A stretch of DNA of 64,000 nt, from NCBI GenBank assembly GCA_041398325.1, contig JAWKUX010000014.1, forward strand, positions 20,596-84,595, written 5' to 3'. The position numbers were made by a program, and so were the translations under genes. The DNA is from Hyphomonadaceae bacterium. Lineage in GTDB: Bacteria; Pseudomonadota; Alphaproteobacteria; Caulobacterales; Aquidulcibacteraceae. Positions 49,358-55,719 of the stretch are shown piece after piece (positions within the stretch are counted from its first letter, which is position 1; every line of letters starts with the position of its first letter). Below the pieces are notes generated by a model. That model was given only the letters and a program-made list of their open reading frames with translations, was not told the DNA's origin and made no database searches.

Positions 49358-50005
49358 CTAATCGCGCTTCAGGAGCGCGCCGACGTATTGAGCGCCGCTC
49401 ACCAGCGCCAACGCCGCCGCCGTCCACAACAGGATGCGCGCCGCCCAATCAAGGCCAACGCCTATACTGCCCGGGATTCCGAAGGCGGACTCGAGCAACG
49501 CCACGGATTGAAACGCCAGGAACGCGCCGACGCCCGCCATCTCGGTTGCCGCTTTCCACTTTCCAAGTTGGCTCACCGGTAGTGACTTGCCTCGGGCCGA
49601 GAGGCCTTCGCGCAATCCCGCGACCGCCACGTCGCGGCCGAGGATCAACACCGCCGCCGCCACCAGCATCATCGGCAGCGCAGCATATGCGAGCGCAACA
49701 AGCACACACGTGATCAGAACTTTGTCGGCCGCATGATCGAGCGCGGCGCCGAGCGGCGTTACGGCATTCCATTTGCGCGCCAGATAGCCGTCGAGCCAAT
49801 CGGTCGACGCGGCGAGCAGGAAGAGGATGAGCGCCAGCGCGTAGATGAAGCCTGAGAGCAGTGGGTCGCTATGCAGATCGTTGGAAGCCCATAGAACCAG
49901 TGCAGCAATTGCCGGCCCCATCGCGATGCGAAACACAGTAAGCAGCGTCGGGATCGCGCTCGGCTTCGTGGGTGTCTCAACGCTTGTTGTCGTGGAAGAA
50001 GTCAT
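49358..50005 (-). CDS. pgsA: CDP-diacylglycerol--glycerol-3-phosphate 3-phosphatidyltransferase
   Basis: CDP-alcohol phosphatidyltransferase motif [28 protein letters not shown]. Internal ATG start. Overlaps the uvrC 3' end by ~29 nt. Confidence 0.85.
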
Positions 50006-52094
50006 AGATGCGCTTCGCCAGTTCCTTGTTGACGCCCTCGACGCCTTCCAACTCCGCCAGCGCCGCGCGCGAAACGCCGCGCGCCGAGCCAAAGCGATCA
50101 AGCAGAGCGCGTTTGCGTGCGGGGCCAATGCCGCCGATTTCATCGAGCGGATTCTTGGCGATGCCGGCGCTGCGCTTGCCGCGATGGGCGCCGATGGCGA
50201 AGCGGTGCGCTTCGTCCCGGAGCCGCTGCAGGTAGTAGAGAACCGGGCTCTTTTCGTCGAGCCGAAACGCCGGCTTGCCTGGAATGAAGAAACGCTCACG
50301 GCCTGCGTCGCGGTCCACGCCCTTGGCGATGCCGGCGATGGTGATGCGGTTCTTGAGGCCAAGTTCGTCCAGCGCTTCGAGCGCGGCGTTGAGCTGGCCA
50401 TCGCCGCCGTCGATCAGGACGAGGTCCGGCCAGGCGCCGAATTTTGTTTCGGACGCGTCGCTGTCGCGTTCCTTGGAGAAGTCGACGCCGCCGTCGCTGA
50501 CACGTCCGCCATTGTCCCTCTCCCCTTGTGGGAGAGGGTGGCCGACGAAGTCGGTCGGGTGAGGGGTGCTTGCGCTGCCGTCACCCCTCATCCGATCCTC
50601 GCTGTCGCGAGGATCACCTTCTCCCACAAGGGGAGAAGGACGATCGTCTTCTTCGCGCTCTTGCATCATCCGCGCGAAGCGGCGGCGGATCATCGCTTTC
50701 ATCATGGCGAAGTCGTCGCCGTCGAACTCTTCCGCCTTCATGTTGAACTTGCGGTACTGGTTCTTGGTGAAGCCTTCCGGCCCGGCGACGATCATCGCGC
50801 CAAGCGCGTTTGTGCCTTGGATGTGGCTGTTGTCGTAAACCTCGATCCGTTCGGGCCGCTGCGAAAGGCCGAACACTTCCGCCACGCCATCCAGCAGCTT
50901 GGCGACGCTGCCAGTTTCGGCCATGCGCCGTCCGAGTGCTTCGCGCGCATTGAGTAGGGCGGCGTCAACGATTTCGCGTTTCTCACCGCGCTCCGGCTTG
51001 CGGATCTCGACTTTGCATTCCGCGCGCACGCAGAGTGCTTCCTCGAGCAAGTCTTGATCGGTCGGTTCTATGTTGCTCAGGATGAGCTTGGGCGGCTCTC
51101 GGTCGTCATAGAACTGAGCGACAAACGCCCCGAGAATGTCTTCCGCTGACTCCTCGCCGCCGTGGCGCGGGAAGTAAGCGCGGTTGCCCCAGTTCTGGCC
51201 GGCGCGAAAGAAGAAGACCTGAATGCAGGATTGCCCGCCTTCTACATGAAGCGCGAACACGTCGGCTTCGTCGAACGTGTGCGGATTGATGCCCTGCGAT
51301 GCGCGTACGCTGGCTAACGCGCGGATGCGGTTGCGCAAGCGCGCGGCGTGCTCGAACTCCAGCCTGTCGGAGGCTTCGCGCATTTCGACCGCAAGCCGAT
51401 CCTGTAGCTCAACCGAGCGACCTTCGAGAAAGTCGACGCTATCCTTTACCAGCGCTGCATATTCGGCCTCATTCACCAAGCCGGTGCATGGCGCGGCGCA
51501 GCGTTTGATCTGATAGAGCATGCAGGGCCGTGTGCGGCCGCCAAACGTGGAATCAGAACACGAGCGCAACAGAAAAGCCTTTTGCAGCGTGTTGAGCGTG
51601 CGGTTCACGGCGCCTGCGCTCGCGAAGGGTCCGTAGAACTTGCCCTTAAAGCTCTTAGCGCCGCGATGCTTTTGCAGAACCGGGATTATGTGATCCGTGC
51701 GGATGGCGATGAACGGGAAACTCTTATCGTCCCGCATCAGCACATTGTAGCGCGGCCTGAGCCGCTTGATCATGTTCGTCTCAAGCAACAGAGCTTCCGT
51801 CTCTGTCGCCGTGACGATGATCTCCATCGACACCGTCTGGTGGATCATCCGGTAGATCGCGTTGGTGTGGCCGCGTCCTTGCGCGTACTGGCCGACGCGG
51901 TTCTTCAGGCTCTTGGCCTTGCCCACATAGAGCACCTCGCTGTCGGCCCCGATCATCCGATAAACGCCCGGCTTCATCGGCAGGCGCTTCCACGTATCGC
52001 GGATCGCCTCGATGCCCTTCAGAGCAGGCGTCGGCGCATCTTCCGTGGGCAAGTGCTCCAGCGGAGGCGTGATGGGTTTGTCGGCGCCGCTCAT
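49977..52094 (-). CDS. uvrC: Excinuclease ABC subunit C
   Basis: GIY-YIG N-terminus ([25 protein letters not shown]), UvrBC-interaction region, RNase H-like and (HhH)2 C-terminus. Confidence 0.9.
50515..50640. repeat. 126-bp complex palindromic (MITE/RPE-like) element inserted in-frame in uvrC
   Basis: 26-bp terminal inverted repeats (tccctctccccttgtgggagagggtg / caccttctcccacaaggggagaagga) with nested internal hairpins. Length is 42 codons. Confidence 0.55.
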
Positions 52095-53826: not shown

Positions 53827-53849
53827 GCGGGGGTGAGGGACAAACAAAA

Positions 53850-53885
53850 GGCCCGCGGGAGCGATCCCGCGGGCCTTGGTCTTTC
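53850..53885. terminator. Bidirectional hairpin terminator between convergent genes
   Basis: ggcccgcggg-agcgat-cccgcgggcc followed by ttggtctttc. Confidence 0.55.
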
Positions 53886-55669: not shown

Positions 55670-55719
55670 TGCGCGACGCTCGTGGCAAGGGGGAAGGGCG
55701 CGGAGCGATCCGCGCCCTT

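Follow-up and report, generated by a model that had tools for sequence, protein, structure and literature searches.

The uvrC gene on a 64,000-nucleotide stretch of contig JAWKUX010000014.1 from a Hyphomonadaceae bacterium (the whole stretch analyzed here, hereafter the 64-kb window) carries within its reading frame a palindromic element, at window positions 50511-50644, that is a head-to-head dimer of hairpins of the repetitive extragenic palindrome (REP) type and not a transposon with terminal inverted repeats. The family to which it belongs is widespread and abundant in the Alphaproteobacteria and lies overwhelmingly outside genes, and the element is most probably a selfish or neutral passenger that UvrC tolerates. 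Sequence comparison of related uvrC alleles indicates recurrent independent insertion or replacement, plus loss, within the one permissive loop of the protein that holds it.

The element and its family

The element folds far better than its shuffled counterparts, of which none among 200 folds as well: the energy is -99.3 kcal/mol (z -11.9) when the sequence is treated as RNA and -55.8 kcal/mol (z -10.9) when it is treated as DNA. Its ends are inverted arms of 30 nt each (50511-50540 and 50615-50644) that are 90% complementary; a 24-nt arm core has one inverted partner, with two mismatches, and occurs nowhere else in the window, where 100 shuffles give an expectation of 0. Three inner hairpins stand between the arms, namely an inverted repeat (50555-50568/50582-50595; 14 nt, 93%) and two small hairpins. 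The complex palindrome that a preliminary description of this DNA had recognized is thus real, as are the nested repeat and the two small internal hairpins that it listed. Its terminal inverted repeats do match one another, but it overlooked that each arm is itself a perfect 9-bp hairpin (50516-50538 and 50617-50639). The host gene, the loop, and the parts of the element are as follows.

49977-52094, minus strand: uvrC coding sequence, 705 aa, the host gene (open reading frame [ORF] list; Pfam GIY-YIG, UvrC_RNaseH, UvrC_RNaseH_dom, and HHH)
50433-50657, minus strand: codons 480-554, the expanded endonuclease-domain loop holding the element (PDB 3c65 and 2nrt; AlphaFold)
50517-50645, minus strand: codons 484-526, the element-encoded peptide, 43 residues (translation; absent from the closest orthologues)
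50511-50644, no strand assigned: whole palindromic element, a REP head-to-head dimer with a structured spacer (arms and z-scores; fits the consensus of at least 119 loci)
50516-50538, no strand assigned: REP unit 1, CCCTCTCCC-CTTGT-GGGAGAGGG, a perfect 9-bp stem with a 5-nt loop (intra-arm complementarity 97% family-wide)
50542-50554, no strand assigned: small variable hairpin CCGAC-GAA-GTCGG, which is hairpin C on the sense strand, GGCCGACTTCGTCGGCC (sequence and fold)
50555-50595, no strand assigned: central stem GGGTGAGGGGTG / CACCCCTCATCC around a 13-nt loop of variable sequence (stem conserved family-wide, loop unstructured)
50594-50615, no strand assigned: second variable hairpin GATCCTCGC-TGTC-GCGAGGATC, which is hairpin A on the sense strand (stem 50594-50602/50607-50615)
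50617-50639, no strand assigned: REP unit 2, CCTTCTCCC-ACAAG-GGGAGAAGG, a perfect 9-bp hairpin

A scan for two arm cores 70-100 nt apart, with one genome per species, yields at least 119 loci, mostly in Bradyrhizobium, Tardiphaga, Afipia, Rhodopseudomonas, Mesorhizobium, Devosia, Sphingomonas, and metagenome-assembled genomes (MAGs) of the Caulobacterales/Hyphomonadaceae, with several loci per MAG among the matches listed. By a codon-position G+C test, 117 of the 119 listed loci (~98%) are not in frame in genes, and two are in frame in genuine genes. The REP unit is 23 nt long (CCYTCTCCC-CTTGT-GGGAGARGG), and two units are inverted around a spacer of ~74 nt; in the consensus the stem at the center of the spacer is conserved (GGATGAGGGG / CCCCTCAYCC), and the two small hairpins beside it vary in sequence. 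Aligned copies thus share a modular plan that runs from the arm through GTG to the first small variable hairpin, then to the conserved stem (CGGATGAGGGGT ... ACCCCTCAYCCG) around its variable loop, the second variable hairpin, and the inverted arm. The variable hairpins keep their fold (median z -3.4 over 174 cases with 142 distinct sequences), and the central loop is unstructured. Two other uvrC copies (loci L122 and L126) and one copy outside uvrC (L105) have a hairpin C of identical sequence, and hairpin A of L121 has a compensatory change (GATCTTCGC/GCGAAGATC). The loops of the variable hairpins are typically of a GAA/TTC type; very often one strand reads GCGAAGC or CGAAG and the opposite strand CTTCGG (for example, L004, L005, L008, L014, and window 50542-50554). 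The former is an unusually stable DNA mini-hairpin and the latter a UUCG-type RNA tetraloop, and these loop sequences hint that a single-stranded form matters.

Variation at a single polymorphic stem position identifies the conserved unit: each arm is self-complementary in 97% of cases and the two arms of one element agree in 49%, and the unit is therefore the single REP hairpin and not a long terminal inverted repeat. The arm-type combinations at the two ends stand at 34:32:24:18, that is, they assort randomly. The arms are nonetheless found as pairs, since 262 of 268 arms in ~0.95 Mb form 131 head-to-head dimers, all in one orientation and 80-160 nt from start to start, and the six unpaired arms are mostly degraded dimers. 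Separate insertion of two half-elements around host sequence is disfavored, as there are virtually no solo arms and different loci of one genome have loops in common. There is no sign of target-site duplication, with exact direct repeats flanking 117 copies at or below chance (k=2-5, six offsets).

The window copy has TGTC immediately outside REP unit 1 (50512-50515) and CGTC, on the minus strand, immediately outside REP unit 2 (50640-50643). A CGTC/TGTC tag occurs in only 5 of 234 arms among the loci listed, where TCCC and TTCC predominate, and is unsupported as a family feature; an NGTC tag is present in 6 of 10 arms of the Caulobacterales copies of type A, the subfamily of the window copy. 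The best match to the element among Rfam covariance models is 37 bits against a threshold of 168 bits, to generic long-hairpin microRNA precursors, and such sub-threshold matches are typical of any long hairpin.

Full dimers with the same arms are also present on eight viral or proviral contigs (L131-L138; IMG/VR), and phage-borne copies therefore exist. Others are in records labeled as Gammaproteobacteria (Fluviicoccus, Stagnimonas, and Rudaea) or as a Planctomycetales MAG (L009, L023, L050, L057, L083, L093, L103, and L106), and these represent either horizontal spread beyond the Alphaproteobacteria or binning contamination.

Occupants of one UvrC loop

The window UvrC is 100% identical to the UvrC of 'MAG: Hyphomonadaceae bacterium'. 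The element is translated in the only frame that is stop-free on the sense strand, so that uvrC is read through in frame and gains ~43 residues rich in Pro, Gly, Asp, and Arg; the G+C content at third codon positions is 0.60 in the element versus 0.81 in the flanking codons. The preliminary description had placed the insertion in a variable linker between domains, but comparison with PDB 3c65 and 2nrt shows that the site is an expanded loop inside the C-terminal RNase H-like endonuclease domain, where it connects a helix that ends in ...RRRY(T/S)(R/K) with the strand P(D/N)L(I/L)...DGG. This loop has 75 residues (480-554) in the window UvrC, 43 of them given by the element, versus ~3 in the two structures. 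In an AlphaFold model that is poor overall (mean predicted local distance difference test [pLDDT] score of 52), residues 484-553 have pLDDT values of 25-31 and are all coil, and the domain on both sides reaches 70-90. This surface loop is probably disordered, and UvrC presumably retains its function despite the insert.

We compared the 120 closest UvrC proteins, which are 82-100% identical to that of the window. The stretch that follows RRRFARM.xERxE, up to a 12-residue motif, is hypervariable among them. A short linker of 21-25 residues is present in ~26 of the 120 and the type-A peptide of the window in six, and the remaining linkers are other translated palindromes, of types B, C, D, and F, with the result that the loop is occupied in about three quarters of these orthologues. 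The inserted peptides of the different types are mutually unrelated:

Type B linker peptide: FSLAEK...PHPPPPSPQGRGG
Type C linker peptide: PPPLAGEV...SSPVNGG
Type D linker peptide: SPLAGEGWEGG...APQGGGG
Type F linker peptide: SSSMEEAP...

The DNA of eleven alleles agrees with this division. Every long linker is strongly structured (z -3.9 to -10, with the window at -10), in contrast to the two short linkers (z +1.1 in the closest short-linker relative and +0.3 in the other).

In a tree of UvrC built without the linker, and by nucleotide identity, the nearest relatives of the window form a short-linker clade (P0008; 96.8% aa and 88.7% nt identity outside the linker). At 93-95% aa the carriers of types B, C, D, and F stand next in order, and at 85-89% aa the remaining type-A carriers are the most distant, so that the tree has the linker types interleaved. 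Each of subfamilies A, B, C, D, and F starts 0-6 codons after EREE, with their arms read in different frames, and B, C, and D arms are also present at non-uvrC loci. A single ancient insertion that diverged in place is a misfit with all of these features. Because the codons at which the inserts begin and the arm frames differ, types are interleaved, and B, C, and D arms occur elsewhere, the pattern points to recurrent insertion or replacement at one loop. The nearest orthologues are without the insert and copies in other genomes keep their palindromy, and the view of the segment as an inserted palindrome, rather than a conserved part of UvrC, withstands this comparison.

One locus (L124) has a type-D-carrying uvrC and, ~1.2 kb downstream, a type-B element (L124:5286-5416) that separates a glyoxalase-family gene from its neighbor; a single genome, and even a single neighborhood, can therefore hold several subfamilies. 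A further type of inserted peptide (...PPRDREAIPL..DSPAAERP...) adjoins a D/B-type insert in the UvrC proteins P0042 and P0111 and in the UvrA protein P0159, which suggests composite or nested elements of another repeat family, common to UvrC and UvrA.

Probable passenger status, route of arrival, and repair-gene bias

We propose that one REP-dimer copy entered, or persisted in, a UvrC loop that was already long, placed in the one frame that is free of stops on the sense strand. The family would spread as whole dimers by a hairpin-dependent process that leaves no target-site duplication, as has been proposed for REPs and for REP doublets forming hairpins (REPINs), and selection would restrict survival to insertions in permissive loops and open frames, such that one loop may become occupied repeatedly. 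Mobility of the subfamily is supported by the non-uvrC copy L105, which is in a genome that also holds the uvrC copy L122.

Several observations weigh against this account. At least 119 loci exist in other genomes, but the 64-kb window has only the one copy, with no second copy found by a pattern search with 3 mismatches, by blastn-short with a word size of 7, or by a perfect-hairpin scan. No transposase has been identified for the family; a gene for a REP-associated tyrosine transposase (RAYT, a Y1 transposase) is not evident in the window, although no systematic search was made for one. The element is also not a clean insertion. Where P0008, the short allele nearest to the window, has 27 nt, the window has 129 nt (43 codons), which makes its uvrC longer by a net 34 codons; the 126 bp of the preliminary description are a multiple of three and the frame is intact, but those exact ends have no clean empty-site support. 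A simple filter for permissive loops fails to explain the excess of inserts in uvrA, uvrC, and uvrD. Finally, pure neutrality is unable to explain how well the modules are conserved, which requires nucleotide-level constraint, homogenization, or recent arrival.

The conservation is strong. Over the 91 nt of the structured modules (arms, central stem, and hairpin C), the remaining uvrC copies of type A have 95.6-98.9% identity to the window, and the coding flanks of these alleles are 80-83% identical, falling to 60-66% at third positions. The non-uvrC copy L105, in the same MAG as the uvrC copy L122, has equally similar modules and is identical at 91 of 91 positions to L126, a uvrC copy in another MAG. 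As a copy outside uvrC is equally conserved, module conservation is a property of the family and is not evidence of a need of UvrC for the peptide; it comes about through sequence-specific maintenance, homogenization, or recent spread.

How the element reached the window allele is a separate matter. It is possible, though less likely than not, that it came by homologous recombination, as a short-tract allelic replacement from a uvrC allele carrying type A, or that it was retained while sister lineages deleted it. The right junction (GGGACAATGGCGGAC) and its counterpart in L122, a distant allele, are the same at all but 1 of 15 positions, and over the 20 codons downstream the window and the short allele E24, the closest to it, group with type-A carriers (0.81-0.87) and not with B, C, D, and F (0.70-0.73). 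There is also a short allele, E21 (L129, P0098), whose closest relative (L128, P0054) carries a type-B element, and the two have GAGCA(A/G)GCGCCTGAGC in common, with 17 of 18 nt of E21 matching that element's central loop (p<0.001). E21 may thus be a two-sided deletion derivative rather than a pristine site, and its sequence is consistent with some short alleles having arisen by deletion. However, the flanks of the window allele follow E24 to the left and to the right of the linker. We considered and rejected an extended recombinant tract spanning the element, as sliding-window identity gives no clear switch of nearest neighbor, and so was E24 as a visible deletion remnant, since local alignment to any element is no better than with shuffles (p 0.05-0.99). 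These alternatives bear on the route of arrival and not on the identity of the element.

Both of the in-frame copies among the 119 listed loci are in nucleotide-excision-repair genes, as assigned by codon-position G+C and Pfam:

L092:2658-2787, plus strand: in-frame copy in UvrA (Pfam)
L015:2263-2396, minus strand: in-frame copy in a UvrD-family helicase (Pfam)

The arms of the UvrA insert have the same reading frames as those of the window's uvrC insert (SPLVGEG...HPLPQGER), and the two are from the same Hyphomonadaceae/Terricaulis/Viadribacter group. Among the 120 closest relatives of this UvrA, ~10 have type A, B, C, or D-like peptides at one site, after residue ~243 of P0130 (carriers P0130, P0134, P0136, P0137, P0144, P0145, P0149, P0159, and P0160). 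The site falls between the UvrB-interaction domain and the DNA-binding domain, and in this clade UvrA has, beside the loop of UvrC, another loop that has been occupied recurrently. Intragenic REPs are conspicuously frequent in genes for excinuclease ABC, UvrD, PolI, RecBCD, and DnaE2, with uvrC itself carrying a CGTC-1 unit in Rickettsia conorii (RC0864) and a CGTC-3 dimer in Xanthobacter autotrophicus (Xaut_2344) (Di Nocera, De Gregorio, and Rocco 2013, PMC3733652). Searches with the element-encoded peptide itself gave 7 short hypothetical ORFs by profile and 2 matches in an exhaustive phmmer search of 1.8 billion representatives, a low-complexity query of 43 aa having too little power for a measure of enrichment in repair genes.

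It is conceivable, but we consider it unlikely, that REP dimers are specifically tied to nucleotide-excision-repair genes, either as preferred landing pads or as retained insertions that modulate repair, and are not mere survivors of random insertion. This reading rests on the recurrence, in this clade, of at least five subfamilies at one uvrC loop-coding site and at another in uvrA, with the family present elsewhere in uvrD. Were it true, a pathway whose targets are hairpin DNA or the mobility of the elements might, for example, be damped by the -99 kcal/mol structure in the mRNA or by the altered protein loop.

A function in the host genes, by which the structure is selected as RNA or DNA inside excision-repair genes, for example to tune uvrC translation or mRNA stability or to bind a protein, and is maintained rather than merely tolerated, is likewise unlikely. 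It would account for modules that are 96-100% conserved beside flanks 80-83% identical, for the compensatory changes in hairpin A, for the frequent occupation of the UvrC loop and the ~10 of 120 in UvrA, for the placement of 2 of 2 unbiased in-frame copies among the loci listed in uvrA and uvrD, and for the published bias toward repair genes. But the closest relatives do without the element, the site is held by different subfamilies with different sequences, ~98% of listed family loci are outside genes, no promoter-like or terminator-like site was detected overlapping the uvrC element, and the equal conservation of L105 marks a family property and not a uvrC property. A classical MITE (miniature inverted-repeat transposable element), derived by deletion from an insertion sequence (IS) and mobilized through its terminal inverted repeats by a DDE transposase in trans, is highly improbable in spite of the long inverted ends, the size of ~130 bp, and the many dispersed copies, given that the 117 copies have no flanking direct repeats at the offsets tested, that each arm is an independent perfect hairpin of a type that assorts randomly between ends, and that no IS with ends matching CCYTCTCCCCTTGTGGGAGARGG was seen in the fetched loci.

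Two further features of the window are noted. An ORF listed at 49358-50401 (minus strand) is over-extended and corresponds to a CDP-alcohol phosphatidyltransferase gene downstream of uvrC, which probably starts near the uvrC stop with an overlap of a few tens of bases, as in relatives (29 nt in L120). Two similar perfect hairpins with GCGA loops, AAGGCCCGCGGGA-GCGA-TCCCGCGGGCCTT and AAGGGCGCGGA-GCGA-TCCGCGCCCTT (53848-53877 and 55694-55719), have the look either of intrinsic terminators or of a repeat that is small and local.

Relation to known repeats and significance

The family of the uvrC element (below, the uvrC family) resembles the CGTC REPs, which are mainly alphaproteobacterial head-to-head dimers with 20-100-bp spacers and without a known transposase (PMC3733652). 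Shared features include stems of 8-9 bp with 4-5-nt loops, conserved spacers that possibly hold small stem-loops, a mostly intergenic location, and intragenic copies that are often in excinuclease ABC, UvrD, or PolI genes. In CGTC REPs the tags lie outside the dimer, and in the window copy CGTC and TGTC adjoin the outer ends of the two arms. However, the tag is rare across the family, the stem starts C-C-Y without A/T pairs at stem positions 1-2, and the spacer, with a central stem and two hairpins, is more elaborate. The encoded peptides also differ, with SPLVGEG and PLPQGER in the uvrC family in place of the VIPAKAGI, VIPGLDPGIH, and others of CGTC-1 to -4, and SPLVGEG, PLPQGER, LSHKGRG, and SPTRGEG are all absent from the published CGTC peptide table.

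Similarity to Rickettsia palindromic elements (RPEs), proposed in the preliminary description together with a likeness to MITEs, is borne out insofar as a dispersed palindromic family is inserted in frame in otherwise intact genes (the window uvrC, uvrA in L092, and uvrD in L015), adding loops to proteins that presumably still function. RPE-4 and RPE-6 are themselves CGTC REPs, of CGTC-4 and CGTC-1, respectively (PMC3733652). The uvrC family differs from RPEs in sequence, including the peptides of RPE-4 and RPE-6, in its host lineage (free-living Caulobacterales/Hyphomonadaceae), and in genome context, with ~2% of listed copies intragenic versus many RPEs. The proposed likeness to MITEs, of which the Correia elements of Neisseria and the enterobacterial repetitive intergenic consensus (ERIC) are examples, extends to size, long inverted ends, strong fold, and occasional in-frame insertion, but the target-site duplications and IS-like termini that belong to MITEs are not seen in the uvrC family.

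REPINs, which are GTAG REPs mobilized by RAYTs, also have two inverted hairpins as a unit, a single hairpin as the conserved module, and no target-site duplication, but the uvrC family is without the GTAG tag and its spacer is much longer and structured. The bacterial interspersed mosaic elements (BIMEs) of Escherichia coli and the Rhizobium-specific intergenic mosaic elements (RIMEs) are likewise intergenic and built of modular palindromic units and conserved internal motifs; the comparison with RIMEs is by description, and the plasmid matches of the uvrC family are in Azospirillum, Neorhizobium, and Methylobacterium and not in Sinorhizobium. The searchable literature has nothing relevant on the arm sequence or the encoded peptides. 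The kind of event is already known, as REPs have been described inside uvrA/B/C, uvrD, and polA (Di Nocera et al. 2013, PMC3733652), but the sequence family and the occupation of one loop by multiple subfamilies appear to be undescribed.

In-frame palindromic repeats show selfish DNA lengthening protein loops without destroying function. They also matter for annotation, as such elements give rise to small ORFs that are spurious and leave conserved proteins with odd segments of low complexity. The clade studied here provides a natural allelic series at a codon-scale site of an essential repair enzyme, with empty alleles, five subfamilies, part-deleted copies, and composites, and UvrA provides a parallel one. 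Two questions thereby become testable, namely how tag-less REP dimers move and why intragenic REPs cluster in DNA-repair genes, a concentration noted in 2013 that, to our knowledge, has never been explained. The uvrC element and its relatives are thus valuable mainly because this series of natural alleles allows tests of how REPs move and of the bias toward repair genes.

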